Positions 4,361-27,460 of a stretch of 64,000 nt of DNA are shown one piece after another. Origin of the DNA: Dehalococcoidia bacterium. GTDB lineage: Bacteria > Chloroflexota > Dehalococcoidia > Bin125. The position numbers and the translations under genes were made by a program. The stretch covers positions 174,090 to 238,089 of the forward strand of contig JAJEJC010000001.1 in assembly GCA_022828105.1 (NCBI GenBank), in the 5' to 3' direction. A model generated the notes under the pieces. The model saw only the letters and a program-made list of their open reading frames with translations. It ran no database searches and was not told where the DNA came from. Numbering within the stretch: position 1 is the first letter of the stretch; each line of letters begins with the position of its first letter.

Positions 4361-4478
4361 GGGGGAGAGGGGAGCCCCCCTCTGCCTTCGGCATCTCCCC
4401 CCGCTTCGCGGGGGGAGAGGGGAAGATGCGCTCGGCATTCCACGTGCTGCGCGGGGGGAGAAGGGATCAGCTGCGCCA
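4361..4478. repeat. Palindromic G/C-rich repeat element, copy A (core 4384-4433 with extra GCGCGGGGGGAGAGGGGA arms).
   Basis: The core reads cccccctctgccttcggcatctccccccgcttcgcggggggagaggggaag. It holds an 11-bp perfect hairpin tctccccccgc/ttc/gcggggggaga plus AGAGGGG/CCCCTCT pairing. Confidence 0.8.
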
Positions 4479-6095
4479 GTGGGCGATCATGCCGTCGACG
4501 TAGAGGACTCGGAGGGCGGAGAGGAGGCCGGGGAGGAGTTGGGCTCGCTGTTGATCAGGGACGCCTTCGAGCAGGTCGTCGAGCAGGTCTCGGACGGGGC
4601 GGCGGCCGTCGATTCTTGCGGCGAGCGCGGCGATCAGTGTCGAGATGGGCGCTCCTTGCGGGCGGGAGGTGGAGGAGATCACGGCGCCCCACTCGAACTG
4701 TCCCTCGCCGATGACCGGCTTGCGCTCGATCCGGACGCCGTCGGCGAGGCTGGGTACGGCGTCGAGCATCGGGCTGCGGTTGGGCCAGGCGGCGTCGATC
4801 AGGCGGGCCATCTCGGTGTCGCGGCGCTGGCGCTCCTGCTCGACGGCGGCGACGCCGTCGACGAAGTCGGGCGGCGCTTCGCCCTTTTCCAAGACGACGC
4901 GTTCGTAGCCTTGAGGCGGCTGTCCGGCGACGGCGGCGATAAAGGCTTCGCGCGGGGAGATGTCCTCCGCGCCGTGTACGATGCGGCGCGCTTCCCAGAA
5001 GTAGGAGTCGGAGGTGCGGTTGGAGGCGTAGAAGAGAGCAGCCATCTCGCGGAACTGGTGGTACTGCTGCATGTAGAGCTGGGTGTAGACCTCGGCGGCG
5101 GGCCCGCGCATGTCGGTGTCGCGCAAGGCAGAGGTGACGTAGGCGGAGGCGAGCAGCGCCGAAGAAAGCGCGAGGTGAACGCCGGAGGAGAAGAGCGGGT
5201 CGATGAAGCAGGCCGCGTCGCCAACGAGAATGTAGCCGTCGCCGACCAGGCGTTGCGAGGTGTAGGACCAGTCGCGGATTACGCGCGGCTCGTCGATCGG
5301 GGAGGCGTCGGCGAGCATGGCCGAGGTCTTGCGGGTCATGCCGAGTTGTCCGGCGTAGAACATGTCGGTCCCGGCGTCTGAGAGTTGCGCGCCGCCCCAG
5401 GCGGCGTCGACGACGACGCCAACCGACATCACGTCGTCGGGCAGGGGAATGGCCCAGGACCAGCCGTGCTCGTAGGCCTCGATGAAGATGTTGCCGGCGT
5501 CGGGTTCGGGCAGGCGCTGCGCGCCGCGGTAGTAACTGTAGACGGCGAGGTTGCGGAAGAAGTCGTCGTGCTCGCGCGTCTCGAGGCGACGGGCGATGAA
5601 GCCGGTCTGTCCGCTGGCGTCGACGATCCAGTCGGGCGTGAAGCGGTGCGTCTCGCCGTCGGGCGACTCGACCGTCAGCGAGGTCGGTTTGTCCCCGTCG
5701 AAGGCGACGTCGGTGACGCGCCAGCCTTCGCGCACGTCAACGCCGTTGCGCTCGGCGTTGCGCAGGAGCATCTGGTCGAAGGTCGGACGCCAGACCTGGT
5801 AGGCGTGTGGATAGCTGGCGTTGGTCTCGGCGAAGTGCCAGGACCAGGGCTCGGGGTCGCGGCCCCAGACCATGGTCGCGCCGTACTTGGGGGTGAAGCC
5901 GGCGGCTTCGATCTCATCGATGATCCCGAGGGTTTCAAGTATTGGGATGGAGGCGGGAAGGAGTGACTCGCCGACGTGCTCGCGGGGAAAGACTTCGCGC
6001 TCGAAGAGGGTGATGTTGAAGCCCTGTCGGGCGAGGAGGGTGGCGGCGGTGGAGCCGCCTGGTCCACCGCCGATGACGATGATGCTGTCGGACAT
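4467..6095 (-). CDS. FAD-dependent halogenase-like oxidoreductase (tryptophan-halogenase family) with a ~120-aa C-terminal extension.
   Basis: N-terminal IVIGGGPGGSTAA is GxGxxG. GWSWAIPL matches the WxWxIP flavin-halogenase signature. Lys in GFTPKYGATMVW sits where the catalytic Lys would be. GDAACFIDPLFSSG is the FAD motif. Confidence 0.8.
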   Translation of the reverse strand: MSDSIIVIGGGPGGSTAATLLARQGFNITLFEREVFPREHVGESLLPASIPILETLGIIDEIEAAGFTPKYGATMVWGRDPEPWSWHFAETNASYPHAYQVWRPTFDQMLLRNAERNGVDVREGWRVTDVAFDGDKPTSLTVESPDGETHRFTPDWIVDASGQTGFIARRLETREHDDFFRNLAVYSYYRGAQRLPEPDAGNIFIEAYEHGWSWAIPLPDDVMSVGVVVDAAWGGAQLSDAGTDMFYAGQLGMTRKTSAMLADASPIDEPRVIRDWSYTSQRLVGDGYILVGDAACFIDPLFSSGVHLALSSALLASAYVTSALRDTDMRGPAAEVYTQLYMQQYHQFREMAALFYASNRTSDSYFWEARRIVHGAEDISPREAFIAAVAGQPPQGYERVVLEKGEAPPDFVDGVAAVEQERQRRDTEMARLIDAAWPNRSPMLDAVPSLADGVRIERKPVIGEGQFEWGAVISSTSRPQGAPISTLIAALAARIDGRRPVRDLLDDLLEGVPDQQRAQLLPGLLSALRVLYVDGMIAHWRS

Positions 6096-6130
6096 GAGAT
6101 GAGGTTATCGGGCGTTGTTGGATCGTGAGG

Positions 6131-6190
6131 TGGGGAACCCCCCTCTGCCTTCGGCATCTCCCCCCGCTTGCGCGGGGGGAGAGGGGAGAC
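6131..6190. repeat. Palindromic G/C-rich repeat element, copy B.
   Basis: gggaacccccctctgccttcggcatctccccccgcttgcgcggggggagaggggag. Same family and same orientation as copy A. Confidence 0.8.
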
Positions 6191-6266
6191 CAGAGATGTT
6201 GGTTGAGGGAACGCGAGAGACCCGCGCCGGGGCGCGGGTCTCTGTTGGGTGAACCCGGGTGGTGGA

Positions 6267-7562
6267 CTAGTCGCCGGGGAAGGCGGCTCCGGAACCGGTG
6301 TTGACTTCGAAGGCTCCCTTGAGGTCGAGTTCCTTGCCCATCTCGCGGACGGCGGGGATGACTTCCTCGCCGAAGAGGCGGAGGGAGCGCATGGCGTCGT
6401 CGTGGTTCATCGCGCCGTCGCCGTCCCAGAAGAAGATGTTGCCGGGGCGCAACTCTTCGAGGACGTGGCGGATCTTGGGGATTACGGTCTTGGGCGTACC
6501 CGTGATGATCGAGTACTTGTTGACCTGTTCCTCGTAGGTACCGAAGGCGTCAGCGTCCTGCTTGTCGGTTTCGGCATCCTTCTCGGCCAGCGCGGCGTCG
6601 CGCTCGGCCTGGCGGCCGCGAGCGGCGGCGGCGAAGGTGGTGACCGTCGGCAGCAGCGCGGTGCGGCTGGTCAGACCGGGCAGGTTCTGCAGGTTGCTGC
6701 GAACCGTGCCCTGGTTGCCCTCGAGGAACGGGTTGGCGGGACCGGAGATGTACTTGCGTCCGGCTTCCTCGGCCAGTTCCTCGGTCTCGTCGACGTGGAC
6801 CTTGAAGAGGTAGCCGTGGTGCTCCGTCGATGCCTCGTAGCCGTTTTCGCGCGCGACCTCGTCGTAGTAGTTGAACGACTGCTTGGTCGGCTCGATCTCG
6901 GTGGCGAGCATGACGTAGGGGTAGCGATGCTCGGCGCACCACTTGACGGTGTTGCGCGACATCACGCCGGGGATCCAGATCTGCGGGTGCGGATCCTGGT
7001 AGGGGCGGGCCCAGGGGTTGACGTAGCGGTACTGGTAGTGCTCGCCTTCCCAGCGGAAGGGACCTGGAGTCGACCAGGCCTTGACAACGAAGTCGTGGGC
7101 TTCCTGGAAGCGCTCCCAGTTGAAGGGCGCCTGCGAGTTGTGGGCAACGGACTCGCGGCCGGTACCGCGCACCCAGCCGGTGACCAGGCGGCCGCGCGAG
7201 ATCATGTCGATCTCGGCGAGCTCCTCGGCCAGCCAGAGCGGGTCTTCCCAGATCGGCAGGACGTTGCCGAGCAGGACGATCTTGGCGCGCTTGGTGATGC
7301 GGGCGAGGATGGCCGCTTCGACGTTCATCACGCCGCCCATGCAGAAAGGCGTGGAGTGATGCTCGTTGAGCATCAGGCCGTCGAAGCCCATCTCCTCGGC
7401 GTAGACCTTCTCGTCGAGGTAGCGGTTGTAGAGTTCCGCGCCGATGCGGGGATCGTAGTCCCCGTTGGTCATGCCCAGGTCCTCAATCTCACGCCCGGTC
7501 GCGCCGACCCAGCCTGATTCGAAGTCCTGGTAGGGACGCTCGGTGAAATAGCCAATGAACAT
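6267..7562 (-). CDS. LLM-class (luciferase-like) flavin-dependent oxidoreductase.
   Basis: LNEHHSTPFCMGG and EIDMISRGRL are typical of the luciferase-like monooxygenase TIM barrel. 431 aa including a C-terminal tail. Confidence 0.85.
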   Translation of the reverse strand: MFIGYFTERPYQDFESGWVGATGREIEDLGMTNGDYDPRIGAELYNRYLDEKVYAEEMGFDGLMLNEHHSTPFCMGGVMNVEAAILARITKRAKIVLLGNVLPIWEDPLWLAEELAEIDMISRGRLVTGWVRGTGRESVAHNSQAPFNWERFQEAHDFVVKAWSTPGPFRWEGEHYQYRYVNPWARPYQDPHPQIWIPGVMSRNTVKWCAEHRYPYVMLATEIEPTKQSFNYYDEVARENGYEASTEHHGYLFKVHVDETEELAEEAGRKYISGPANPFLEGNQGTVRSNLQNLPGLTSRTALLPTVTTFAAAARGRQAERDAALAEKDAETDKQDADAFGTYEEQVNKYSIITGTPKTVIPKIRHVLEELRPGNIFFWDGDGAMNHDDAMRSLRLFGEEVIPAVREMGKELDLKGAFEVNTGSGAAFPGD

Positions 7563-7657
7563 GGTTCCGGTTCCTGTTCCTCCGACTCAGTGCGGCATTG
7601 CCCGAGCCGATTGTGCGCTGCTGAGAATGATACGCGATCCCGAACCGCCTGCCCCGC

Positions 7658-8452
7658 CTAGAGTCCCGAGATGAACGAGCTGATTGCGTCGGCGGCGGCC
7701 TGCGGGTTCTCCAGTTCGACGAGGTGTCCCGCGCCCTCGATGACCTGCAGGGTGCTGTTGGGCAGGCTGGCGTCGTAGACCTCGGCCACGCCGATCGGCG
7801 TCACACGGTCGTTCTCGCCCCAGAGCAGCAGCGTAGGCGTCTCGACCTCGCCGATCAGGTGGGGAAGCTGCCGATTGAACATCCACGGCTTCCAGGTCAG
7901 GCGGGCGGTCATCTCGCGGGAGAAGTCCCACAGTTCCTTGAGTTCGGGCGCGGCTTCGTCGCCGAAGACTTCGGCGTACGCCTCGTCGGAGGAGAAGCCG
8001 AGCTTCACGTACTCTTCGAACTCGTAGAAGATCACGTCGGCGATTTCGCCCTCCTCGGGCTGGACGCCGGCGGCGCCGACCAGGACCAGGCTGTCGAGGC
8101 CGTGCAGGTGCATGGCGGCAAGCTCGGCCGCGACCCAGCCGCCGAAGCCCATGCCGACCATGTGGGCGTCGTTGTCGATGCCCATCTTGTGCACGGCGCT
8201 GTGCAGCAGCATGGCAATGTCGCGCGGGTGCCGCGCCCAGGTCGGCCGTTCGGACTGTCCGTAGCCGGGCATGTCGATCGCGGTGACGGTGTGGTTCTGG
8301 GCGAGCAGGTCGTAGAAGGGAATCCAACCGGGCGAGCCGGTGGAGTGGTGGAGGACGACGATGTTCGGTCCGCTGCCGTCCTGCAGCGCGTTCACCTTGA
8401 GTCCCGCGACTTCAACGGCGATCTGCGTGTGTGTCTCTGTCTCTGTGGTCAT
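7658..8452 (-). CDS. Alpha/beta-hydrolase fold protein.
   Basis: HGSTGS region, nucleophile elbow MVGMGFGGW, and a C-terminal GAGHLVELE His motif. The track ORF extends to 8815 but the upstream 121 aa are low-complexity. MTTETETH at 8452 is the plausible start. Confidence 0.8.
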   Translation of the reverse strand: MTTETETHTQIAVEVAGLKVNALQDGSGPNIVVLHHSTGSPGWIPFYDLLAQNHTVTAIDMPGYGQSERPTWARHPRDIAMLLHSAVHKMGIDNDAHMVGMGFGGWVAAELAAMHLHGLDSLVLVGAAGVQPEEGEIADVIFYEFEEYVKLGFSSDEAYAEVFGDEAAPELKELWDFSREMTARLTWKPWMFNRQLPHLIGEVETPTLLLWGENDRVTPIGVAEVYDASLPNSTLQVIEGAGHLVELENPQAAADAISSFISGL

Positions 8453-8636
8453 ACGCGTGCTCCTGAATCCCTGCCGGGGAATTGGCGTCTGAGTGTGCCT
8501 GGATCGTCTGGCGGACGAACTAGTTAGGCGCAGGCTAAGCGCCAATCGAGTGTTGGGCAATTGCGGGTGGGCTGCGGTGTCGGGCGACCCTGCCGGGGGC
8601 CGTGCATAGTACGTGCGGTCGTAGCATGACGGCATC

Positions 8637-11600
8637 ATGCTGGGACTTCTGCGACTGCTCAGACTGGCGGCGTTGCGCGAGTTGCGCGGCGGCTGGGCGC
8701 TGATGCTGGCGGCGTCGGCGCTGCTGATCATCGCGGCCGGATTGGTCGCGCTGCCGCTCGTGTTTCGGGCCGCGTCGGCCGACCTCGCGCTGCGCGAGAC
8801 GATCGAGCAGTCCAATCGCGCCGTCCACTTCGTCGATCACACCCGTGCGGATCGTCCGGCGACACAGGCCGATGTCGTGGCGACGGCGGCGACGGCGGGC
8901 GAGCTGCGCGAACGTCACCTGGGTTCCTTCAAGGGTCTGCAAGGCGCGACGAAGCGGATCCTCGACTCACCGCAGGTGACATCGAGCTTCACGCGTCTCG
9001 ACAACAAAATCACGGAGGAGATGCTGGCCTATCTGACCGTGTTCGAGGACCTGAACGCGCATGCGAGGGTCGTGTCGGGACGCTGGCCGCAGGCGGCAGA
9101 TGAGGTCGTGATCGGCGCGAAGCTGGCGGAGCAACTGAGCCAGGACGTCGGCAGCACGATCGTATTCGGGAGCGCGCAGCCGTACACCATCGTCGGTCTA
9201 ATCGAGCCGGTCTCGGTTGACGTCAGCGGCGTGTTGGCGCTGCATTACACCGATGTCTGGTTTGAGCTTCAGGAGAACCTGGCCGGGCTGGTCGTGATTC
9301 CATACTTCGCGATGTTCGCCGGCGTCGAGGCGCTCGAGCAAGTCGGACTGCCGCTGGTGCATCGGTTCCGGACAGAGCTGAATCCCGATCGGTTGAACTC
9401 GGACCAGGTGGAGAAGGCGGTTGAGGCATTGGCGGCGTGGGAGCAGGAATCGAATCGACTGGTAGGCGGCTCGGCTTCGGCGCTGTTGTTGCCGACTTTG
9501 CAGCGATTCGAGCGGGAGGCGCAGTTCTCGGCCGGGCAGTCGCTGCTGGCCGGTCTGCAGATTGCGGCGGTGGCGATGTTCGGGGTGGCGCTGGTCGGTC
9601 GGGTGATGGCGCAGCGGACGCGGGTGGATCGGGAGCGGCTGGCGGCTCGCGGGGCGAAGCCATGGCAGCAGGCAGGGGCGCAGGCGATGCTGGGCGGACT
9701 GGCGGCAGTCCCGGCGGCGTTGCTCGGCGCGCCGCTGGCTGCGTTTGCATTGAGCCACGCGGGCCGGTTGGACGCCGTGGCGCGTGTGTCTGGCGGCGAG
9801 CCGTTTGACACGCGCCTGACCTGGGAAGCCTGGGCTCTGGCCGTGACCGGCGCACTGATCGCCTGGATCGCGTTCGCCGCCCCCGCCTGGTTCGATTCGC
9901 GCCAGCGGGAAAATCCGCGTGTCGCGGCGGGGCGTCCGCGGCGGCGCTCGCTGTTCCAGCGGGCCTGGCTCGATGTGGCGTTGCTGGCGCTGGCGACGGT
10001 GCTGTTCCTGCAGTTTGAGACCGAAGCTTCGGGCGGCGCGTTCTCGGCGTTCGAGTCGGGCGGGATGAATCCAGTGCTGATGCTCAGCCCGGGGCTGCTG
10101 TTGCTCGGCGCGGCGCTGACGATCATGCGGGTCGCGCCGCGCGTCTGGGGCATCGTTGCCCGGCTGCTCTCGCGATTGCCGATTCCATCCTGGCTCTATC
10201 TCGGCGTGCTCAACGTCGCGCGCAATCCAACCGGTCCGATGTTGCTCACGGCGTTGACCGCATTTGTCACGGCGGTCGGACTGATCTCGGCTACCTATGC
10301 GTCGACGATCGAGACCGTGGAGCGGGAACGGATCGAGTATCAGGTCGGTTCGGACCTGCGCGGCGTCTCGATCGGGGGCAACCTGTCGAACTCGACGATT
10401 GGCCGGGTGACCGAGCCGCTCGAACGGCGAGACGGGATCACGTCGGCGGCGGCGTACCGCGGGATCGGCTCAATCGGCGGCGACCGCGAGGGCAGTCGGG
10501 TGGTGCTGTTGGGGCTGCAAACCAGCCGCATCGGCGAGACCGTGTTGCTCGACGACGATCTGCTCGGCGTGCCGTCGGAGCAGCTATTGGCGGCGATTGC
10601 GCGTGAGCCGGGCCGGGTCGGGCAGGCCTTGCCCGACGGCGCGGAGTCGCTCGTAATCCGTGTGCGCAGCGAACCCGACAACAGCAACCTGGAGATGGCT
10701 GCGCGGGTCATTGACGGGCACGGCCAGGTCCAGATGAGGCAGTTCCGCAGCAACACGGCTACGACCGTGGACTCCGAGTGGCAGACACTGGAGGCGCCGC
10801 TCGCGGGGCTGAATCAGCCGCTTCGGATCGCCGCCATCGTGCTGCGTCCGCAGGCGAGGGTCGTGCGAGCGCCGACGGGCACGCTCTTCATCGCCGGTCT
10901 CGAGGCTCGGGTTGGAGAGCAGTCGGTCGCGGTCGATGCATTCGATGAGGCGGCGCCGTGGCTCGCGGCATCGAGCGGCGCTGGGCAGGACCGGATCGTG
11001 TTTGCGGGCGGCAACCTGGAGTACCGCTGGTCGCAGCTCGACGCGAACGACGAGCGGATCATCGTGCGGGAATCTCCAAACCTGCCTGTGAACGCGGCGA
11101 TGGATCGGAGATCACTGGAGACGGCCGATCTGGACGTCGGCGACGTGGTTCCGATCGTGCTGAGCAATACCACCATTCCGGTGCGGATCACGGCAGCGGT
11201 CGATTACTTTCCGACCTTGAATCCGGCCCAGGGTGGATTCCTGATTGCCGATCTGTTGGCGCTGCGCAGCGCGGCGCTCGTCGCGGCCGTGCGGGCCGTG
11301 CTGCCGATCACGGAAGTCTGGGCGCGCACAGAGACCGGCGCTGCCAATGTGATCGCGGCGGAACTGCTGGACGAGGTGTACCTGTCGAGCACGGTGCTCG
11401 ACGCCGACGCCCAGCTTGCGGCGGCCGAGTCCGATCCGCTGCGCTCGGGCGGGACGGCGGCGTTGTTTGTGGTTGGCTTCATCGGCTTGCTGGTGGTCGG
11501 ATCGGCGGCGCTGGTGTTCACGATGGCGGCGGCCGGCAGCGAGCGGGCGCGTGAGTTCGCGTTGATGCGGACGGTTGGATCGGGCCGGGCGGGACTGACC

Positions 11601-11876
11601 GCGCAGGCGGCGGTGGAGGTGGGCCTGGTGCTGATTGCCGGAGTCGGCCTGGGATTCGGACTGGGCCGGGCCGTCGCCGGCGCACTGCTCGCATTCCTCG
11701 ATGTGACGAGCGACGGTGTCGCGGCCGCGCCGCCCACGGCGTTGTCGATTGACTGGGCACTAGCCGGGATCGGGGTAGGCGTCGTGGCCGCCTGCGCGAT
11801 CCTGGGTACGTCGGCGATTGCCCGCTGGGCGACGGGACGCGATGCCGCGCCGCTGTTGCGGGAAGGCGCCGACTGA
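8637..11876 (+). CDS. Large duplicated FtsX-like (MacB-type) ABC permease, 1079 aa.
   Basis: N-terminal TM, extracellular domain and FtsX 4-TM bundle occur twice. The C-terminal MRTVGSGRAGL...LIAGVGLGFGLG resembles FtsX. Confidence 0.75.
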   Translation: MLGLLRLLRLAALRELRGGWALMLAASALLIIAAGLVALPLVFRAASADLALRETIEQSNRAVHFVDHTRADRPATQADVVATAATAGELRERHLGSFKGLQGATKRILDSPQVTSSFTRLDNKITEEMLAYLTVFEDLNAHARVVSGRWPQAADEVVIGAKLAEQLSQDVGSTIVFGSAQPYTIVGLIEPVSVDVSGVLALHYTDVWFELQENLAGLVVIPYFAMFAGVEALEQVGLPLVHRFRTELNPDRLNSDQVEKAVEALAAWEQESNRLVGGSASALLLPTLQRFEREAQFSAGQSLLAGLQIAAVAMFGVALVGRVMAQRTRVDRERLAARGAKPWQQAGAQAMLGGLAAVPAALLGAPLAAFALSHAGRLDAVARVSGGEPFDTRLTWEAWALAVTGALIAWIAFAAPAWFDSRQRENPRVAAGRPRRRSLFQRAWLDVALLALATVLFLQFETEASGGAFSAFESGGMNPVLMLSPGLLLLGAALTIMRVAPRVWGIVARLLSRLPIPSWLYLGVLNVARNPTGPMLLTALTAFVTAVGLISATYASTIETVERERIEYQVGSDLRGVSIGGNLSNSTIGRVTEPLERRDGITSAAAYRGIGSIGGDREGSRVVLLGLQTSRIGETVLLDDDLLGVPSEQLLAAIAREPGRVGQALPDGAESLVIRVRSEPDNSNLEMAARVIDGHGQVQMRQFRSNTATTVDSEWQTLEAPLAGLNQPLRIAAIVLRPQARVVRAPTGTLFIAGLEARVGEQSVAVDAFDEAAPWLAASSGAGQDRIVFAGGNLEYRWSQLDANDERIIVRESPNLPVNAAMDRRSLETADLDVGDVVPIVLSNTTIPVRITAAVDYFPTLNPAQGGFLIADLLALRSAALVAAVRAVLPITEVWARTETGAANVIAAELLDEVYLSSTVLDADAQLAAAESDPLRSGGTAALFVVGFIGLLVVGSAALVFTMAAAGSERAREFALMRTVGSGRAGLTAQAAVEVGLVLIAGVGLGFGLGRAVAGALLAFLDVTSDGVAAAPPTALSIDWALAGIGVGVVAACAILGTSAIARWATGRDAAPLLREGAD

Positions 11877-14800
11877 TGGCCCGCCAACTGCCGACGCCGC
11901 AACAGAGTCAGAGTGATGCGCCCCGGCGGGGCGAGACGGCGCGCGAGTTGGCGCTGCTCGCGATCCGCCGGATCACGTCGGCACCGCGGCTCTCGGCGGT
12001 GCTGCTGATCGGCGCGCTGCTTGCGGTCGGTCTGGCCAGCAGCGCGCCGATCTTCATCGAGGCGGTTCGGGACCTGGGACTTCGCCAAACGTTGGCCGAA
12101 GCCGATCCTGCCTCGCTTGACCTGCGCGTCGTCCGCTCGAACATCACGGCCAATCAGGAATCGGTTGGCTCGGTTGAGTCGGTGATCCAAACGGAGGCCG
12201 GCAGCGCGCTCGGAGCGCTCAGCTCCGAGCGAATGAGCGCGATTCGGACCGGCGGCTTCACGTTGCGCAGCGACGATCAGCCGTTCAACCCGCCGGATCC
12301 GCCGCACGCGACGTTCCTGGCCCAGAACGACCTGGCGGATGTATCGCTGCTGGCGGATGGTCGCCTGCCGGCTGTTGCCGAGGGAGTGATCGAGGTAGTC
12401 GTCGAGTCGCCGCAGGCGGAACGGTTCGGACTCGTCGTGGGCGACGAGCGCCTGGCGCAGCCGTTCTGGCTGGGCACGCAGCACGAGACGCGGGTGCGCA
12501 TCGTAGGCCTGGTCGAGCCATCGACGGACGAGCGGCGCTGGTCGACGCTGGACCCGCTGTACTTGCCGGTGGCCGCGCGCGACTCCGAACTGCGCTTCTG
12601 GACCAGCCGGGAGAGCATCCTCGGCATCCTGGCCGACCATTCGCCAACGCTGCGGCTGACCGTATTGCAGCGCTACCGAACCGATCTGGCCGGCGTCTCG
12701 GCGACGCAGGCGTCGGCTGCTGCCGATGCGCTCGAACGGATGACGCGGCGGATCGCGCAGGCGATTGACGGCGTGCAGCAGGAGACCGAGTTGGTCGACA
12801 CGCTGGTGGGGTTCCGGGAGCGATTCCAGTTCGCGCAATCGACGCTGCTGATGATCGTCTTGCAACTCGTGGGCGCGGTGCTGGTCTATGCGGTGGTCGC
12901 CTCGGCGATGTTGGCCGAGCAGCGCACCGAGGACACGGCCTGGCTGCGTTCGCGCGGCGCGCGGCAACGGGACGTGGCGGTGTTGCACCTGGTTGAGGCG
13001 GCGATGCTGACCGCTCCGGCGATTGTGCTCGGTCCGCTGATCGGAGTGGGGCTGGTCAGCCTGCTCGGCTTTGTGCCGCCGTTCGACGAGGCGCTTCGGG
13101 AGATCGGGTTCGGCCCGTTCCTGCCTGCGCCGCTTCCGGCCGAATCCTGGTACCTGGCGCTGGGCGCCGGCGCGTTGGCGCTGATTGCGCAGGCCGTGCC
13201 GACGTACCGCGCGACGCGCCAGACGATGGTGACCACAAGGAGAGAGCGAGGCCGTCCGCCCGCGTCGTGGACGCAGCGGGCTCTGATCGACGCGGCTGTT
13301 GTGGCGCTGGGGGCGCTGCTGATCTTCGAGCTGCAGTGGGCCGGGGACCCGATCGATTCGCCGCTGGTCGGGGAGACGCGGCTGGACTGGTTGGCGGTGG
13401 CGACGCCGACGGTGTTGCTGTTCGTGGTCGGACTGGCGGTGCTGCGGCTGTTTCCGACGGCGATGCGGGGCCTGGCCCGCGCCGCGTCGCCGCTGCGATG
13501 GCTCACGCTGTTGCTGGGCGCGTGGTACCTGGGACGGACACCGACCCACTACGGACGCACGGTGTTGCTGCTCACTATCGCCGGCGCGCTGGCCGTGTTC
13601 GCGGCGTCGTTCCGGACCACGCTCGACGCGTCCTACGACGATCGCGCGTTGCATGCGGTCGGCGCTGTGGTGCGCGTGCAGGAGCCGCTCTCGCAGACCC
13701 TGCCGTTCGATCGGATTGCCGAGTCGACGGGCAAGCCGGTGGCGCAGGTGCAGCGGATCACGGGCACGTTCGACGGCGACGAGGACTCGGGCAAGCTGCA
13801 GATTGTCGCTCTCGACGCCTCGACGGTCGCGGGCCAGATGCGCGAGGGCGGGGTCGACTGGTCGATGTCGCCGCAGGAACTCGACACGATCGGCCGGCCA
13901 ATCTCGCAGGCCGAGCGACCGATCCTTGAGTCCGGCGGGCGGGTCAGTCTGCGCCTGACTCCGGTGGGCATCGGACAGAGCGTCACGCTCGGGATCAAGG
14001 TCCAGGACGCGATCGGGCGGTACTGGTGGTATCGGCTGGGAGAGTTGTCGCAGTCCGATAGCGAGACGATTGAGCTGAGCGCCACGATTGGCGGCGAGCC
14101 GACGCTGTACATCCCGCTTGAAGGCGCGAGAGTGGTCGAGCGACGCAGCGCCTGGCGTCCCGGGGTCGGGGAGCGTCCCGAGTGGCCGCTGCAGTTGGTC
14201 TCGGTCGATGTTGCGCTGGCGCGAGCGCCGGGAGCTGTGGTCCTGCACTCGCTCGAGTACCGCTTCGCAGGCGAGACGAGCGTGATCGCCGACTTCAATC
14301 TCGACGAATGGGAGGCGATGCCGCTGTCGGCGGGCGAGGAAGCGGTCGACAGACTTGAGGCCGTGGAGGGCGGTTCGCGATACCGCTGGGATGCGACGCC
14401 GACGTCGCTGCGCGGGGTGCACTACCGCGGCGACAGCGAGCCGCTGCCGGTGCTGCTCTCGTCGGCGGCGATGGCGCAGGGCCGGTTGCGGATCGGGGAG
14501 CTGGTGCGGCTGCGGATTGGTCCGACGCCGATGCGGTTCGAGGTGGTCGGAGAGTTCAAGACCTTCCCCACGTACGACGAGCAGCGCGACGATCCGATCG
14601 TGATCCTCGATCGCGCGTCGCTGGTCGGACGCATCTACGGCAGCGCGTCGGCCGGCGTGTCGCTGGCGGTCGACGATGAGTTGTGGATTTCCGCTCCAAT
14701 CTCGGAGTGGCAGACACTGATCGTTGAGCAAGATGCGGCGGTGGAGAGCGATCAGGCCAACCGGTTCAATGAAGATTCCGACACGCAAGTCACTACTCGT

Positions 14801-17650: not shown

Positions 17651-17653
17651 GCG

Positions 17654-19600: not shown

Positions 19601-21712
19601 ATGTCCCTGGTACGACGTCCATCGAGACGCTTCGGGACTCGCTCGGTTGGACTGTTGTGGCGGCTGCCGCTGATCGGGCGAGTCCGGATTCCGCGCAACC
19701 TGGCGCCGCTCCTGCTGGCGGTGGCGGTCGGTCTGGCGGCCGGGTTTGCCGCCGTGGTCTTGACGGCGCTGGTCGACGGCCTGGTCGCGGTGTTCGACGA
19801 GCTTGAGTCGGTGCTGGACAGTCTCGCCGGCGGCTGGACGTTGATGCTGGTCCCGGCGATTGCCGCAATTCCGGTTGCGTTCGTCGTCTCCCGCGTGGCC
19901 TCCGAGTCTCAGGGCGCGGGCGTGCCCTACGTGATGGTCGCGGTCGAGCGCGCGGGCGGGTTTGTGCGGCCAATCATTGCGCCGGCCAAGCTCGTCGCGA
20001 CGGGCTTCACGCTGGGCGGAGGCGGCGCGGCAGGACGCGAGGGTCCGATTGTCCTGATTGCGGCGTCGCTGGCGTCGACGATCGGCCGATTGACTCGCCA
20101 GCCGTCCGACATGCTGGTGCTGATGGTCGCGGCGGCGGCAGCCGGGGGCATTGCGGCCACGTTCAACACGCCGATCGCGGGCACGTTCTTCGCGCTGGAG
20201 GTAGTGCTGCGGCGGTTCAACGTGCGCAACTTCACGGTCGTGGTGGTCTCGGCCGTCGTGGCCAATATCGTCGCGATCGCGTTCTACGGCAGCGCGCACG
20301 ACCTGAACCTGCCCGAGCTCGACTTGGGCAGCAACTGGGAACTGTTCCTGCACGCCCTGGTCGGCGTCTCGGCCGCGATCGCCGGGATTCTCTTCGTGCG
20401 CACGCGGTTCTTCACCGAGGACGTCTTCGAGTTCCTGGGTGTGTCGATGACCGTGCGGCCGATTCTTGGCTTGTTCGCCGTGGGCGTGCTGGCGCTGATC
20501 GAGGCCAACATCCTGGGCCCGGGACTCGACCAGATTCGCCTCTTTGCCGAGGGCGGCATGGCGACCTCGACGCTTGCGGTCCTGATGGTGCTCAAGTTGA
20601 TCGCCGCCTCGCTGACGATCGGTTCTGGCGCATCCGGGGGAGCGTTCGCGCCGCTGCTGTTCGTGGGCGCGACGCTCGGCGCGCTGATGGGCGCGGGCTT
20701 CGAGTCCGCCCTGCCGGGGGTCGTGGGTCCCACCGGCACATACGTCGTGGTCGGCATGGCGGCGGTCTTCGCGGCGGCCGCGCGCGCGCCGATGACCTCG
20801 CTGTTCATCGTCTTCGAGCTGAGCGGTTACTCGCTCGTCTTACCCCTGATGACGGCGGTCGCGCTGGCGACGGCGCTGGCGCAACTGCTCACGCGGGACA
20901 CGATCTACAACGTGCGGCTGCGCCGCGCCGGTCTCGACGTGCGCGACGAACACACGCCGTCGCCGCTGGACAACCTGACCGTGGAGACGACGATGCGGAC
21001 GGACACGCCGATCGTGTCGCGGCTGGCGACGATCCAGGACCTGGCAGCGGCGATGAGCCAGTCGCGCGGCAACGTCGTCGCCGTGGCCGACAACCAAAAC
21101 CGCTTCATCGGGCTGGTCAGCGCGACCGATGTCACGTCGGCCGTGGAGCGCGCGGAACTCGGTCGGCGGGCCTTTGACCTGGCTGCCGTCGCGCCGATCT
21201 TCGTCCATCCCGACGACAATCTCCGCTACGCGCTGTCGCTGCTGGTCGATCATGACGTGCGACAGTTGCCGGTGGTCGCGCGCGAGGACAACACGCGCCT
21301 GGTGGGCATGCTGACCCAGCGCGACGTGCTGCGCGAAGTCGCGCAACCCAGCGATCGGTCGCCCGACCAACGCGGCGCGCCAACACCGGTGCGACGGCTG
21401 GTCGGAGCGGTCGAGATCGAGTGTCGGGTGGAACCGGGCTCCCGAGCCGAAGCCACGACCGTCTCGCGGCTGGCCCTGCCCGAGGCGTCGGTGATTACGG
21501 CGATCCATAGGCGCGGCGAGGTGGTGATCCCGCGCGGCAACGTCTCGCTCGAGGCCAACGACCTGGCCGTGGTACTGACGGTGCCGCCCGAGGAAGGCGC
21601 GGTGCGGTCGCTGTTCGTCAATCGAAGCGGTCAATCGCGGACCAACTGGTGGTTCCTACCGCACCCGCCGCATGCGCCGACCAGCCAGGACGACGACGCT
21701 TCGACGCGCTGA
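19601..21712 (+). CDS. ClC-family chloride/fluoride-type channel or antiporter with two CBS domains and a C-terminal TrkA_C (RCK_C) domain.
   Basis: GREGP and GAFAP (GxFxP) motifs. The first selectivity motif reads GAGVP rather than GSGIP. A CBS pair and a TrkA_C-like region follow the pore. Confidence 0.85.
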   Translation: MSLVRRPSRRFGTRSVGLLWRLPLIGRVRIPRNLAPLLLAVAVGLAAGFAAVVLTALVDGLVAVFDELESVLDSLAGGWTLMLVPAIAAIPVAFVVSRVASESQGAGVPYVMVAVERAGGFVRPIIAPAKLVATGFTLGGGGAAGREGPIVLIAASLASTIGRLTRQPSDMLVLMVAAAAAGGIAATFNTPIAGTFFALEVVLRRFNVRNFTVVVVSAVVANIVAIAFYGSAHDLNLPELDLGSNWELFLHALVGVSAAIAGILFVRTRFFTEDVFEFLGVSMTVRPILGLFAVGVLALIEANILGPGLDQIRLFAEGGMATSTLAVLMVLKLIAASLTIGSGASGGAFAPLLFVGATLGALMGAGFESALPGVVGPTGTYVVVGMAAVFAAAARAPMTSLFIVFELSGYSLVLPLMTAVALATALAQLLTRDTIYNVRLRRAGLDVRDEHTPSPLDNLTVETTMRTDTPIVSRLATIQDLAAAMSQSRGNVVAVADNQNRFIGLVSATDVTSAVERAELGRRAFDLAAVAPIFVHPDDNLRYALSLLVDHDVRQLPVVAREDNTRLVGMLTQRDVLREVAQPSDRSPDQRGAPTPVRRLVGAVEIECRVEPGSRAEATTVSRLALPEASVITAIHRRGEVVIPRGNVSLEANDLAVVLTVPPEEGAVRSLFVNRSGQSRTNWWFLPHPPHAPTSQDDDASTR

Positions 21713-21734
21713 TCGGGTGCCTAGACTCAGGGTC

Positions 21735-22145
21735 ATGCCTCGCCTCTACACGCTCTCGCAGGCTCGCCGCTCGTTGCCCGCGATTGCCGCCGTGGTGACG
21801 GTGATGCGCAAGCGCGCGCTGCGGCTGGACGAGTTGACGGCGATCTCCTCGTCAATGCAGCGCAGTTCCGGCGCCGACGGGGGTCAGGTGGTCGGTGACG
21901 ACTCGGAGATACAGGCCGAAATCACGAAGCTGGAAGGGCAGATCGTCTCGCTAATCGAGCACATCCAGGAGCAGGGAGTGGAGGTCAAGGATGTCCGCCG
22001 GGGACTGGTCGACTGGCGTGCGGAACGCGACGGTCGGGAGGTGTACCTCTGCTGGCAACACGGCGAGCGGACGCTGAGCTGGTGGCACGAGATCGCCGAC
22101 GGCTTCGCCGGACGCCAGCCGATCGTCGCGTCCGAGTGGGTCTGA
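21735..22145 (+). CDS. DUF2203-family protein.
   Basis: MPRLYTLSQARRSLP N-terminus typical of DUF2203, followed by a coiled-coil region. Start taken at 21735. Confidence 0.65.
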   Translation: MPRLYTLSQARRSLPAIAAVVTVMRKRALRLDELTAISSSMQRSSGADGGQVVGDDSEIQAEITKLEGQIVSLIEHIQEQGVEVKDVRRGLVDWRAERDGREVYLCWQHGERTLSWWHEIADGFAGRQPIVASEWV

Positions 22146-22155
22146 GGCGCGTCGC

Positions 22156-22926
22156 ATGACCCATCACCGCACGCTCGCTCCACCCGTACGCCGCGGCGGC
22201 GCGCCTGTGATTCATGCCGAACTGCAGCGTCACTACGACGCGCTGTACGACCAGTTGCTCAACCGGCGTCCAGCGCGTGAGGCTCGGCCCGTGCTCGACG
22301 TGGGCACGGGCGACGGACTCACGCTGGCGGCGATCACGCAGGGCTCGCCGCTGCACGGCGTGGGCGTCGACACGGCCGAGCCCGGCCACTGGCTGGGGCC
22401 GGTCGGATGGAGCGTGATCCAGGCGGATGCGCAACGGCTGCCGTTCGACGACCGGAGTTTCAGGTCGGCGCTGATGGTCGATGTCTTCGAGTGGCTGCGG
22501 CATCCGGCGGCGACGCTGGGCGAGATCGCGCGGGTGACCGACGGACCGATCCTCGTGGTGCAGACGGATTGGGAAGGCCTGTGGTTCCAGGCGGACAAGG
22601 CCGAGGTCGGGCGCCACCTGGTGCGGGCGTTCACGCGCGGCGCGCCGGAGCAGCTTCGCAGCCGGATTCGGGCCGCGTCGACGGAAGCGGGACTGGAAAT
22701 CAGCGGCAGTTCCATCGCGACGATCTCAGCCGAGACGCTGAAACCGAACGGACTTGCCTGGGACGTGCTGGAGTCGATCCGGCGCTATCTGGTGATCGAA
22801 TCGGCGCAGGTCCGCGCGCGGCGCTTCGACGACTGGCGCGCCGAGTTGCAGCGGGCCTCAGACGATGGGCAGTTCACGATGCTGCTGCGTCGCGTCGTGG
22901 CGCTCCTGGAGCGTGCGACTGTCTGA
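22156..22926 (+). CDS. Class I SAM-dependent methyltransferase.
   Basis: VLDVGTGDG is motif I, and QRLPFDDRSFRSALMVDVFEW follows. Methyltransf_11-like. Confidence 0.75.
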   Translation: MTHHRTLAPPVRRGGAPVIHAELQRHYDALYDQLLNRRPAREARPVLDVGTGDGLTLAAITQGSPLHGVGVDTAEPGHWLGPVGWSVIQADAQRLPFDDRSFRSALMVDVFEWLRHPAATLGEIARVTDGPILVVQTDWEGLWFQADKAEVGRHLVRAFTRGAPEQLRSRIRAASTEAGLEISGSSIATISAETLKPNGLAWDVLESIRRYLVIESAQVRARRFDDWRAELQRASDDGQFTMLLRRVVALLERATV

Positions 22927-22940
22927 TCTGAGGCAAGGAG

Positions 22941-22997
22941 CGCCCCCCCTCTGTCGCTACGCGACATCTCCCCCCGCATCGCGGGGGGAGAGGGAAG
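22941..22997. repeat. Palindromic G/C-rich repeat element, copy D (diverged centre).
   Basis: gcgccccccctctgtcgctacgcgacatctccccccgcatcgcggggggagagggaag, between convergent genes. Confidence 0.75.
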
Positions 22998-22998
22998 G

Positions 22999-23886
22999 TC
23001 AGGGGGAGCCGTGGCGGTGGCCTTCTTGATGGACGTGATCGTCCATGTGGAGTTGGAGTTCGTCGCCAATCGTGAAGGTGTGGTGTTCGTCCTGGCGGTC
23101 GGCCTCGTCGTGCACGTCGCCGCGCGAAATGATGGCGAGTTCCCGTCCGAAGGTGCGGCGCAGCACGTCTTCGGTCAACGCGCTGGAGGGGTCGCCCTGG
23201 GCGATCACGCCGCCTTCGGCGGAGTTGATACAGACGACCTGGGAGTAGTGCTCGATCACGGTCGAGAGGTCGTGCGTCGTCATGACCACGGAGGTGCCCA
23301 GGTCGGTCAGGTCGCAGAGCACATCGAAGAGATGATCGTCGGAGACGGCGTCGAGCGCGGCGGACGGTTCGTCAAGCAACAGGATGCGAGGCTGGCGGGC
23401 CAGCGCGCGGGCGATCAGGGCGCGCTTGCGCTGACCGCCGGAGAGCTCGTGGATCTGGCGATCCTGGAGGTCCTGGACGTCCATCATCGCCAGGGCGCGG
23501 TCGACCGCGATCTGGTCCTCGTGGCTGCGAATCAGCCGGCCCAGCCGCCGGTACCAACTGAACTGGTAGCGGCCCATCGAGACCAGTTCGCGCACGGTGA
23601 TCGGAAAGCGCCAATCGACGTTACTGACCTGCGGCATATAGCCGAGAAACGCGCGCGCGCGCTGGGGCGGCTCGCCGCCGATCCGGATCTCGCCGCGTGA
23701 CGGCTTGACGAGTCCGGCGATCGTCTTGAGCAAGGTGCTCTTGCCCGATCCGTTGCCGCCGATGATGCCCGTGAACACGCCGCCCGGAATGTTCAGCGTG
23801 AGGTCCTCAAAGACCGGCTGGCCGGGATAGCCGACGCTGACGCCGCGAATCGCGACATCCGCTCCGGATACCGGTGCAATCGTCAT
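22999..23886 (-). CDS. ABC transporter ATP-binding protein (metal-type, ZnuC/MntB-like) with a His-rich C-terminal tail.
   Basis: Walker A GGNGSGKST, signature LSGGQRKR and Walker B ILLLDEP are present. The tail HDEADRQDEHH...HMDDHVHQEGHRHG is His-rich. MTIAPVSG at 23886 is taken as the start, since upstream of it is low-complexity. Confidence 0.85.
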   Translation of the reverse strand: MTIAPVSGADVAIRGVSVGYPGQPVFEDLTLNIPGGVFTGIIGGNGSGKSTLLKTIAGLVKPSRGEIRIGGEPPQRARAFLGYMPQVSNVDWRFPITVRELVSMGRYQFSWYRRLGRLIRSHEDQIAVDRALAMMDVQDLQDRQIHELSGGQRKRALIARALARQPRILLLDEPSAALDAVSDDHLFDVLCDLTDLGTSVVMTTHDLSTVIEHYSQVVCINSAEGGVIAQGDPSSALTEDVLRRTFGRELAIISRGDVHDEADRQDEHHTFTIGDELQLHMDDHVHQEGHRHGSP

Positions 23887-23944
23887 GGCAACCTCGAACT
23901 GTCCAGGAGCCCGAAGGGCGTTGCCCGCTGATAGCCTCAAGCTC

Positions 23945-24841
23945 ATGCCCAGCCTAGTTGACGCGAGCGGCACAGAGCTATCCCTCGACCGCCCGGCTCG
24001 AACGGTCGTCTCACTGGTGCCTTCGTTCACCGAGCTGGTCTGCGAGATGCGTCTGTCCTCGCGGCTCGTGGGAGTGACCAGGTTCTGCGTCGAACCGGCC
24101 GAACTGGTCACCCCGATCCGAAAGGTCGGCGGCACCAAGAACCCGGACATCGAGCGGATCATCGCGCTGCGTCCCGAGCTGGTCCTGGCCAACCTCGAGG
24201 AGAACACCGAGGACGATGTGCAGGCGCTGCGCGAGGCGGGGCTGAACGTCTACGTCGGCGACGTGCGTACGGCCGACCAGGCGAAGGCAGAGATCGAGCG
24301 GCTCAGCGAGTTGCTGGGCGGGATTGCGATCAGATTGACCGACTCACTTACAGAGGCGCTTGAGGAACAGCAGCATGTCAGCCGTCTCCGCCCACGGGTA
24401 CGGGTCGCGGCGCTGATCTGGCGCAATCCGTACATGGCGGCGTCGGGCGACACGTACATCGGCGATCTGCTGCGGCTCTGCGGCGGGATCAACGTCTGCG
24501 AGGACGCCGCGAGCGGGCGCTATCCGCGCCTCAGCCTGCCCGAGCTGATCGAGCTCGATCCCGAGGTGATCCTGCTGCCCTCGGAGCCATACCGCTTCCG
24601 CGAGCGCCACGCCGAGGAGTTGCTGGCGCAGCACGGCATGTCTGCCGCGCGCGACGGACAGGTTTATCTCTGCGACGGCCAGAACCTGACCTGGTGGGGC
24701 GCGAGGACTCCCGCGGCGATTCGCGATGTGGCCGCGCTGCTCGATCAGGCGCGGGTCGGCTGGCAAGCCGAGGCGGCGATGACGCCCGTGTTGCCGCCGG
24801 GGCTCAACCTGTCGGTGACGCAGCAGGACGTGGTCGAATAG
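23945..24841 (+). CDS. Periplasmic-binding-protein type 2 (BtuF/TroA-like helical-backbone) substrate-binding protein with no obvious signal peptide.
   Basis: ARTVVSLVPSFTELVCEM and PDIERIIALRPELVLAN are Peripla_BP_2 features. Start taken at 23945. Confidence 0.7.
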   Translation: MPSLVDASGTELSLDRPARTVVSLVPSFTELVCEMRLSSRLVGVTRFCVEPAELVTPIRKVGGTKNPDIERIIALRPELVLANLEENTEDDVQALREAGLNVYVGDVRTADQAKAEIERLSELLGGIAIRLTDSLTEALEEQQHVSRLRPRVRVAALIWRNPYMAASGDTYIGDLLRLCGGINVCEDAASGRYPRLSLPELIELDPEVILLPSEPYRFRERHAEELLAQHGMSAARDGQVYLCDGQNLTWWGARTPAAIRDVAALLDQARVGWQAEAAMTPVLPPGLNLSVTQQDVVE

Positions 24842-26015: not shown

Positions 26016-26459
26016 ATGAGCGACCCCGAGACCTCTCGCCGCTGGTTGACAAAGGCGCTGCGCGAAGCGTCGGGCGAGATGCACGAGCTGATGATCCGCG
26101 CGCTGCGCGGCTCGATGCCCGAGGCCGAAACGCTGGTCGAACGGGCCTGGCGCGACGGGGCGATCTCCGCCTGGCAACTCGGACACCTGCTCTTCCAGGA
26201 TGTCGCAGACCTGCCCCTGCACGACTTCGAGTGGCTGGAGCAGGTCAACCGGCCCGACTGTTACGAGCAGATCCGCGAGTGGTACCAGACGCGGGAGCAG
26301 ATCTCGAGCGTGTTGTACATGCTCTCCGAGTACGAGTGGGAACGAGTGGCAAATCATCGCTTCCAGGGCGAGCTAAGCGTGGAGGCGATTGCGCGCTCGA
26401 TGCACCAGTCGGACCTGGAAATCCTGAACGCGCTGCGGGCGCAGTTGCAGCCCACCTAG
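26016..26459 (+). CDS. Hypothetical protein (147 aa).
   Basis: Very high GC3 and helical composition. Divergent from the previous small gene. Confidence 0.55.
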   Translation: MSDPETSRRWLTKALREASGEMHELMIRALRGSMPEAETLVERAWRDGAISAWQLGHLLFQDVADLPLHDFEWLEQVNRPDCYEQIREWYQTREQISSVLYMLSEYEWERVANHRFQGELSVEAIARSMHQSDLEILNALRAQLQPT

Positions 26460-26469
26460 GTCAGTCGGG

Positions 26470-27366
26470 TCAGTCGGCCGGCCAGCCGAGCGCTGAGGCG
26501 ACCTCAGAGGCGGCGCGGGCAAAGTTCATGGTGTAGATGTGCAGGCCGGGCGCACCGAGTTCAAGCAACTCGCGGCCCAACTCGACCGCGGTCTCGACGC
26601 CGATTTCGCGGCGCTCGGCCTGACTCGACGCACGCTCCAGGCGGTCGTGGATTCCGGACGGAAACTCGGTGCCGTTGAGCGCCGACATGCGCTCGACGCT
26701 TGCCACGTTGGTTGGCGGCATGATCCCGGCGATCACCGGGGTCCGCACCCCGCGCGCATCGAGCTGGCTGACGAACTGCTCGTAGTACTCGGTGCGGTAG
26801 AAGAACTGCGTAATGGCGAAGTCGGCCTGGGCGAGCTTTGTCGACTGATGCGCGAGGTCGGCCTCGACCGACGCCGCCATCGGATGGCCTTCGGGATGTG
26901 CGGCGACGCCGATATCCCAGTCGGCCCGCTCGCGGATGAAGCGGGCGAGTTCGGCGGCGGCGTCGAAGGCAGGGGACCCCCCCTCAGCCTTCGGCAGCTC
27001 CCCCCCTCTGGGGGGGAGCGAAGAAGAGGGGAGCGGAGCGTCGCCGCGGAGGGCGAGGATGTTGGCGATGCCGTCGGACTGGTAGTCGCGGACAATTGCG
27101 GCGACTTCGTCACGCGTGTGGGCGACGCAGGTCAGGTGCGGCATCGCCTCGACGGCGAAGTCCTCGCGGATGGCGCGGACCCAGTCGCGAGTCGGACCGC
27201 GAGTGGCGCCGCCGGCGCCGTACGTGACGGACATGAACTGCGGTCGGTGTGCGGCAAGCCGGGCGAGGGTCTGCCTCAGGCGCTCGGCGCCTTCCTCGTC
27301 GCGCGGGGCGGAAAACTCGAACGACAGCGTTTGGCCCGCATCCAGCAACTGCGAGATGCGGGCCAT
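26470..27366 (-). CDS. metF: 5,10-methylenetetrahydrofolate reductase MetF carrying an in-frame repeat-element insertion.
   Basis: QFMSVTYGAGG, NILALRGD and ITQFFY match the MetF family. Relative to E. coli MetF an extra ~16 aa (PSSSLPPRGGELPKAE) is encoded by repeat copy E. Confidence 0.85.
   Translation of the reverse strand: MARISQLLDAGQTLSFEFSAPRDEEGAERLRQTLARLAAHRPQFMSVTYGAGGATRGPTRDWVRAIREDFAVEAMPHLTCVAHTRDEVAAIVRDYQSDGIANILALRGDAPLPSSSLPPRGGELPKAEGGSPAFDAAAELARFIRERADWDIGVAAHPEGHPMAASVEADLAHQSTKLAQADFAITQFFYRTEYYEQFVSQLDARGVRTPVIAGIMPPTNVASVERMSALNGTEFPSGIHDRLERASSQAERREIGVETAVELGRELLELGAPGLHIYTMNFARAASEVASALGWPAD
26971..27036. repeat. Palindromic G/C-rich repeat element, copy E, located inside the metF coding sequence in frame.
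   Basis: aggggacccccctcagccttcggcagctccccccctctgggggggagcgaagaagaggggag. It translates on the minus strand as PLPSSSLPPRGGELPKAEGGSP. Confidence 0.75.
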
Positions 27367-27396
27367 TACGAGTTACTCCACTCCGCGGCCTTGGGC

Positions 27397-27460
27397 CGCC
27401 CCCCTTCAGTCACTCCGCGGCAGCTTCCCCCCGCAGGGGGGAAGCGAAGAGGGAGGGAGG
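27397..27460. repeat. Palindromic G/C-rich repeat element, copy F (same subfamily as E).
   Basis: ccgccccccttcagtcactccgcggcagcttccccccgcagggggggaagcgaagagggaggg, 30 bp upstream of the metF start. Confidence 0.75.

Follow-up and report, generated by a model that had tools for sequence, protein, structure and literature searches.

The small palindromic repeats of bacteria, namely repetitive extragenic palindromes (REPs), the bacterial interspersed mosaic elements (BIMEs), the REP doublets forming hairpins (REPINs) and the Rickettsia palindromic elements (RPEs), have been well studied mainly in Proteobacteria. RPEs are roughly 100–150 bp long, the BIMEs of E. coli are bound by IHF, DNA gyrase or Pol I, and the gene of a cognate REP-associated tyrosine transposase (RAYT), a Y1 HUH transposase, is usually flanked by its REPs. 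In most REP families a conserved GTAG or CGTC tetranucleotide lies at one end of the stem, REPs are rare between divergent genes, and the only Chloroflexi REP family named, GTAG-23, is clustered at a few T. roseum loci, while RPEs are also found in frame within conserved protein-coding genes (PMC3733652). For the IS200/IS605 family, single-strand transposition with insertion into the lagging-strand template has been described (PMC6006769). The present analysis concerns a stretch of 64,000 nucleotides from a Dehalococcoidia bacterium of the phylum Chloroflexota (contig JAJEJC010000001.1, positions 174,090 to 238,089), referred to below as the window, in which a G/C-rich unit of ~49–57 nt occurs six times. 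The family formed by this unit is probably a selfish, non-autonomous mobile repeat of the REP/BIME kind, possibly spread via single-stranded DNA, with the same way of life here in uncultured Dehalococcoidia.

Related copies were collected by scanning species-representative genomes with the pattern of hairpin 2 and metagenomes with the 5' module of the unit, and the DNA around them was sampled as blocks of 8–15 kb, labelled with L-numbers. The consensus of 95 copies was GGGGnG-CCCCCCTCTG-(hairpin 1)-CATCT-CCCCCCGC-(loop of 3–5 nt)-GCGGGGGGAGAGGGGA, reading GGGGnGCCCCCCTCTG...GGGGGGAGAGGGGA, and the start was described as GGGGAG in the window. A C-run 5' box (GGGGAG-CCCCCCTCTG) is followed by hairpin 1, of variable sequence, and by hairpin 2, an invariant G/C stem of 11 bp, the 3' arm of which continues into AGAGGGGA, complementary to the 5' box. 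The ends of the unit are complementary over 7 nt (CCCCTCT / AGAGGGG), and two adjacent hairpins were predicted on either strand, as DNA or as RNA.

The two hairpins were conserved in different ways. Two forms of hairpin 1 were found, GCC-TKC-GGC (short) and GTCNC-TNC-GNGAC (long), and two of the pairs in this hairpin changed on both sides only (CG 56 / UA 34 at one, AU 19 / CG 11 / GC 3 / UA 1 at the other), with 99.6% of the cells paired versus 50–69% when the partner was slid. The stem of hairpin 2 showed zero variation in 145 distinct copies, including copies outside the pattern selection, and its loop had 43 variants in 133 copies (alignment of 150 copies from related loci). The commonest loops were reverse-complement pairs (GGA 18 / TCC 15, TCT 7 / AGA 6 and AAA 7 / TTT 3), which suggests that the palindrome flips in place. 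REPs have one stem, whereas in this unit two hairpins lie side by side between complementary runs of C and of G; neither GTAG nor CGTC lies beside either hairpin in the 95-copy consensus. Since the tag is absent, the family was not filed as a canonical REP.

A covariance model (CM) built from the 95 related copies was run over the window with filters off. Exactly six full units were found in positions 1–64000, all on the + strand (E from 4e-17 to 1e-3), as had been claimed in an earlier note on this DNA; none lay in 27.5–64 kb, and the minus-strand matches corresponded only to the self-complementary hairpin 2. The pattern TCCCCCCGCNNNGCGGGGGGA matched four times in the window versus 0.2 expected, a number reached in 0 of 100 shuffles. 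A de novo repeat search grouped five of the six copies as one family, together with partial copies around copy A, and no match to Rfam 15 at the gathering threshold was obtained at any element in the window. The copies and remnants were as follows.

4346–4373, + strand: truncated copy with the loop and 3' arm only (GCGCGGGGGGAGAGGGGA), abutting copy A; repeat family D3.
4369–4424 (CM match 4369–4427), + strand: copy A, 80.8 bits, E 4.7e-17; full unit with short hairpin 1 (GCCTTCGGC), between the start of a MOSC gene, 3756–4322(-), and the stop of a halogenase-like gene, 4467–6095(-).
~4425–4466, + strand: decayed copy (GCGCTCGGCATTCCACGTGCTGCGCGGGGGGAGAAGGGA, with a 3-mismatch match at 4439–4459), repeat family D3; its 3' end directly adjoins TCA at 4467, the stop of the halogenase-like gene on the minus strand.
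6132–6191, + strand: copy B, 75.1 bits; short hairpin 1 and 4-nt loop, between the start of the halogenase gene (6095) and the stop of a luciferase-like monooxygenase gene, 6267–7562(-).
15427–15485, + strand: copy C, 81.0 bits; fills the convergent spacer between an FtsX permease gene, 11876–15418(+), and a DUF4389 gene, 15492–16061(-).
22938–23000, + strand: copy D, 66.1 bits; long hairpin 1 (GTCGCTACGCGAC), in the convergent spacer between a methyltransferase gene, 22207–22926(+), and an ABC ATPase gene, 22999–23886(-).
26972–27036 (CM match 26972–27028), + strand: copy E, 44.3 bits, E 1.8e-8; second subfamily, intragenic.
27394–27460 (CM match 27394–27454), + strand: copy F, 23.8 bits, E 1.2e-3; second subfamily with a degenerate hairpin 1, filling the spacer between the start of a methylenetetrahydrofolate reductase (MTHFR) gene (27366) and the stop of an Fe-S biosynthesis gene, 27470–27853(-).

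Gene calls rested first on third-position GC content (GC3) and afterwards on codon log-odds scores, from a model trained with long open reading frames (ORFs), because the high GC (62–71% in the window) makes spurious ORFs common; the calls matched those on the public contig (KELL22-1 scaffold). They bore out the earlier statements that five copies (A, B, C, D and F) sit in short gaps after gene 3' ends and that two of these (C and D) are between convergent genes; A, B and F are between tandem minus-strand genes. Other points had to be amended. Copy A had been placed at 4384–4433, ~15 nt off, with no mention of its truncated and decayed neighbours, and the perfect 11-bp hairpin ascribed to every copy (TCTCCCCCCGC/GCGGGGGGAGA) was present in A–D only, with a 10-bp variant in E and F (GCTCCCCCCC/GGGGGGGAGC and GCTTCCCCCC/GGGGGGAAGC). 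The proposal that E and F form a diverged subfamily was upheld: this second subfamily (CCCCCTCAG-hairpin 1-CAGCTCCCCC-loop-GGGGGAGC) is real, with 17 copies in the sampled loci. Copy E reads CCCCCCTCAG-hairpin 1-CAGCTCCCCCCC-TCT-GGGGGGGAGC-GAAGAAGAGGGG.

The pattern of hairpin 2 was matched by at least 111 genome stretches, mostly from metagenome-assembled genomes (MAGs) of Dehalococcoidia/Chloroflexota, and the 5' module by at least 120 metagenome loci. Seven complete chromosomes of 3.0–3.4 Mb were among the genome matches listed, and the full unit was common to all of the Chloroflexota matches listed. It was abundant in ~10 species-level Dehalococcoidia/Chloroflexota genomes, the CM finding ~165 full copies in 637 kb of matching loci, and no copy was found in the viral contigs scanned. 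The hosts are a clade of uncultured Dehalococcoidia of ~66% GC, and many of the carrier MAGs bear names that look sponge- or marine-derived. No description of this repeat family was found in the literature searched on Chloroflexi and sponge symbionts, and such a family of small REP/BIME-like repeats had apparently not been described before. Most of the proteobacterial genome matches were judged unrelated, being fully symmetric palindromes in which the 5' box and hairpin 1 are missing. An exception was one full unit of the E/F subfamily in Phenylobacterium terrae, an alphaproteobacterium (L007, position 3203; CCCCTCAG-TCCCTTCGGGA-CAGCTCCCCC-TGA-GGGGGAGC), the sequence of which suggests either a cross-phylum distribution or convergence.

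The placement of 156 copies relative to genes was determined in the related loci. Tandem genes flanked 82 of them, on the strand opposite to the element in 48 cases and on the same strand in 34; 46 copies were in convergent spacers, 9 in divergent spacers, 7 inside ORFs (all antisense to the gene) and 12 at the ends of loci, where just one of the two sides had a called gene, 149 of the 156 being extragenic. Among the 580 spacers used as background, 403 were tandem, 93 convergent and 84 divergent, to be compared with the 137 classified copies. The preference for gene 3' ends and the avoidance of promoter regions were clear. In these respects the unit is like the REPs and BIMEs of the E. coli type: a short, G/C-rich, imperfect palindrome in many copies, mostly extragenic, located after gene 3' ends and rare in divergent spacers. 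That orientation is set by the upstream gene fits all six copies of the window, but the ratio was 48:34 in the 82 co-directional cases of the related loci (p=0.15), and orientation relative to the neighbouring genes is therefore weak.

A stable G/C hairpin just after stop codons is also the mark of intrinsic (Rho-independent) terminators. This identity was ruled out: no T-run follows the stem of any element, none of the six terminator-like sites in 4000–23999 is an element, copies point either way relative to genes (48:34), some lie within genes, and terminators do not share the conserved 5' box and the second hairpin. The shared orientation of the copies behind gene 3' ends also brought integron attC sites into consideration. 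These were rejected on inspection by eye: no RYYYAAC/GTTRRRY core is present in the consensus, and housekeeping genes on both strands flank the copies.

A host RNA 3'-end element of another type, serving convergent and tandem genes as a U-tract-independent bidirectional terminator or a block to 3' exonucleases and kept by selection instead of being spread by transposition, is an unlikely explanation. It would account for the enrichment after stops and in convergent spacers and the depletion in divergent ones, for the 23 of 95 cases in which the G-rich end of the element and the converging stop codon are no more than 15 nt apart, and for the stem of hairpin 2 being invariant across species; since hairpin 2 is self-complementary, it would form in either transcript. 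Such a function would have to do without a T/U run after the stem, with no copy flagged by the terminator scan, and it leaves the 5' box, hairpin 1, the heterotypic doublets and the strand polarity described below unexplained.

Furthermore, close relatives do without the element. Where the window has copy C, the spacer between the stops measures 3 nt (TGA-GCG-CTA) in one relative, its DUF4389 protein being 98% identical; there is no element in a 95% relative, and the site is filled in relatives of 87% and 86%. For copy D, an 88% relative has overlapping stop codons (CTAG), an 87% relative carries a single unit, and another relative holds three units together with one of a second repeat family. 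The spacer of copy F, between the MTHFR and Fe-S genes, is also occupied in a TARA relative (L115, 456–518). The C-termini and stop codons of the adjoining genes differed between filled and empty sites. These comparisons showed a turnover of copies, by gain and loss, at the orthologous sites of close relatives; a 3-nt spacer and overlapping stops are hard to reconcile with a needed RNA 3'-end function. Within the empty copy C site of the 95% relative, the 23-nt sequence TTATGCGGCCAACCGCACGTCGG stands twice in tandem at the FtsX 3' end (L118, 1770–1820); this duplication may be a scar.

Dispersed, presence-polymorphic copies, at times nested within other repeats and with ends complementary over 7 nt, could also be expected of a miniature inverted-repeat transposable element (MITE) derived from a DDE-type insertion sequence and moved, by cut-and-paste or copy-paste, via short terminal inverted repeats (CCCCTCT...AGAGGGG). 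We regard this origin as quite improbable. No target-site duplication was seen in the two empty/filled comparisons, the flanks of which have diverged, and neither a longer element with the same ends nor a transposase was found in the sampled 8–15-kb loci. A DDE mechanism is, moreover, not expected to give strand polarity or a hairpin 1 conserved in structure only.

Occasional copies lie in frame within genes. Copy E, missed as such by the earlier note, lies within the following gene.

26470–27366, - strand: MTHFR (metF-like) gene, host of copy E; Pfam PF02219, E 4.7e-74, full length.

The copy is antisense to this gene and encodes about PLPSSSLPPRGGELPKAEGGSP; the protein has 298 aa, versus 285 aa in insert-less relatives (+13 aa). 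The insert is absent in relatives of 86–93% identity (285 aa), present in others and doubled in tandem in one. In the AlphaFold model of the MTHFR of the window, the mean predicted local distance difference test (pLDDT) score was 84 and values below 50 were found only at residues 51–56 and 113–129; the latter are the insert, in the loop after the LRGD strand of a confident barrel. According to this model, copy E would be read as a disordered, Pro/Ser/Gly-rich surface loop. The same MTHFR protein, identical, is present on the ENA scaffold KELL22-1_SAMN22237339_METAG-scaffold_115, and its named homologues are proteins of Chloroflexota MAGs. In L051, the head domain of a PolyA_pol/CCA-type enzyme is interrupted by a copy. 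As RNA 3'-end elements, the copies in MTHFR and in the CCA-type enzyme would terminate essential transcripts.

Like the RPEs, the family is palindromic and occurs in spacers as well as in frame within conserved genes (here MTHFR and the PolyA_pol/CCA-type enzyme), with the fold kept. It differs from them in its ~50–57 nt, in being G/C-rich versus A/T-rich, in its free-living or symbiotic Chloroflexota hosts and in its mostly intergenic placement (7 of 156 copies intragenic). Also within a gene, an ORF of 827 aa in L094 (1065–3548) contained two CoA-transferase family III domains, with a linker between them that a copy encodes (PLSPRSAGGDAEGRGG); judging from the sequence, it may be a gene fusion made by an in-frame copy between tandem genes.

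The orientation of the copies was then compared with strand composition. The coding GC skew was measured over all codon positions and split by gene strand; GC3 skew was dropped as a replication proxy because it is distorted by codon usage. This coding skew belonged to the strand and not to the direction of the gene (on average, transcription term -0.01 and strand term 0.07). Single copies followed the local coding-strand skew in 87:22 cases, and in 47:5 where |skew| exceeded 0.08; in the independent metagenome set, the ratio was 81:27, and both types of hairpin 1 behaved alike. Non-adjacent copies within one 8-kb block were co-oriented (38:9). The window was consistent with this polarity, since GC skew was above 0 in each 2-kb window and all copies are on the G-rich + strand. 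The strand polarity is real, and replication may be its cause. In the related loci, neither random orientation (38:9, 87:22) nor a lack of excess at gene ends (46 convergent versus 9 divergent) was found. Of the earlier proposal that the elements are replication-oriented, the regional polarity that follows skew was confirmed, and the link to replication stays an inference because the skew is patchy. Likewise, the claim that orientation is the same whatever the gene direction holds in so far as all six copies are on the + strand; the window alone cannot show independence from genes, because every copy in it adjoins the 3' end of, or sits within, a minus-strand gene. Separately, coding GC skew reached up to 0.27, with the same sign for genes on either strand, in the window and in the blocks of OZ253504.1 and OZ244584.1 (L004–L108).

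Close pairs behaved differently. They were head-to-head in 22 of 26 cases in the genome loci and in 35 of 38 in the metagenome loci; all 24 of the opposite-orientation doublets less than 120 nt apart paired a unit with long hairpin 1 and a unit with short hairpin 1, and 35 of the 38 close pairs in the metagenome loci were heterotypic. Doublets were without polarity (15:9), and no doublet was present in the window. Two subtypes paired in inverted orientation with short spacers are also found in the Y and Z REPs of BIMEs or REPINs. Together with the lack of a T-run, these doublets agreed with the earlier view that the elements are REP/BIME-like and not simple terminators.

A skew concordance that is strong, replicated and higher where the skew is larger (47:5 at |skew|>0.08) might, in principle, reflect selection on strand orientation itself, the element being a polar chromosome-architecture or protein-binding motif of the host, with KOPS, Chi and the gyrase/IHF binding of E. 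coli BIMEs as analogies. The invariant primary sequence of hairpin 2 would suit such a motif, as would a second, unrelated hairpin family in the window that is also all on the + strand. This explanation is very unlikely: doublets carry both orientations with no polarity, copies are dispensable at orthologous sites, and a size of 50 nt with irregular spacing (none in 27.5–64 kb) is unlike known polar motifs.

The selfish mobile repeat is the reading that we favour. Copies accumulate just after stop codons, chiefly between convergent genes, the places where least harm is done, and they build head-to-head heterotypic doublets and mosaic clusters. Spread would probably rely on a trans-acting enzyme recognising the hairpins in single-stranded DNA, with replication as the most likely occasion. 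Such single-strand recognition would explain the Watson-Crick double changes, the lack of a visible target duplication and the match of single copies to strand composition. The structure-only conservation of hairpin 1, the lack of visible duplication and the strand polarity would, by analogy, point to single-strand recognition as for Y1 HUH enzymes (PMC6006769). The same three features, with orientation tied to strand asymmetry, are shared with IS200/IS605 derivatives such as palindrome-associated transposable elements (PATEs). The unit is, unlike PATEs, far smaller, its two dissimilar hairpins are not at separate left and right ends, and neither TnpA nor TnpB was found nearby. A hairpin at RNA 3' ends could be a secondary benefit, which is not needed to explain the data.

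Several observations weigh against this reading. At the two empty/filled sites (C and D) no clean junction or target duplication was found, the flanks having diverged, and insertion is therefore not separable from deletion. The sign of the skew flips over tens of kb along the complete chromosomes OZ253504.1 and OZ244584.1, 64% of the genes are on the C-rich strand in strongly skewed blocks, and no simple two-replichore pattern of skew or orientation was observed in the sampled blocks of complete chromosomes; the patchy skew and the gene-strand bias therefore leave the link to replication direction and the leading/lagging assignment unproven. The GTAG/CGTC tag is missing from the unit. Neither a motif scan nor phmmer with E. 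coli RayT as the query revealed a RAYT homologue in ~1.85 Mb (0.9 + 0.95 Mb) of element-bearing loci. Finally, the near-perfect conservation across species could reflect host selection instead of recent transposition.

One match in the RayT search (E=0.21) was in a non-coding frame, and a Pfam scan of the genes in the most repeat-dense block (L085) detected no transposase. In having no RAYT in the 1.85 Mb sampled, in the strong strand polarity of its single copies, in some copies being in frame within genes and in its phylum, Chloroflexota, the family departs from the REPs. A further and more doubtful proposal is that the unit, REP-like but with neither the GTAG tag nor a canonical RAYT, is acted on by an as yet unrecognised system of Chloroflexota that mobilises single-stranded DNA and is coupled to replication. 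Strand-polar insertions would then record past replication direction, patchy skew would mark inversions, and new peptide loops would be routinely made in housekeeping enzymes.

An untagged two-hairpin unit, an orientation coupled to strand composition and in-frame copies in essential enzymes form an unusual trio, and the family offers a concrete example with which to ask how REP-like DNA is moved outside the RAYT paradigm. Should replication underlie the polarity, the copies would be markers with which to reconstruct inversions in these genomes. For the annotation of MAGs, the copies matter since they alter C-termini and stop codons, fuse or lengthen ORFs and can mimic terminators or small genes.

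Like REPs and BIMEs, the family forms mosaic clusters with other repeats. In L103 (3700–4800), three tandem units of ~365–371 bp were observed, each with the main element plus several other C-run/G-run palindromes, and in L085 (1–8000) at least 13 copies above 55 bits (15 above 40 bits) were found in 8 kb, around small ORFs without Pfam domains. A conserved 3' extension of ~22 nt (ATCCGGCTTGTTCAGAGCGTTC) was present in some genomes (L039, L046, L047, L049, L055, L030 and L084); it ends exactly at the stop codon (CTA/TTA on the element strand) of unrelated converging genes, and the composite element with ATCCGGCTTGTTCAGAGCGTTC may supply or target the stop codon.

The second hairpin family, GAGCGGGYCCCTGCGTGAAGCAGGGAC, is unrelated to the main element and has an 8-bp stem with a GTGAA loop. 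Its copies in the window were at 1496–1532, 1540–1576, 27943–27979 and 49946–49982, every one of them on the + strand in a spacer that follows a gene 3' end, and a GAGCGGGYCCCTGCGTGAAGCAGGGAC unit adjoined the main element in the related loci L041, L061, L069 and L244. Additionally, a tRNA gene at 60396–60469 (- strand) was the sole Rfam match in the window, and two segments 2616 bp apart, 30922–31269 and 33538–33885 (repeat families D17 and D20), were ~80% identical and are probably paralogous gene parts.

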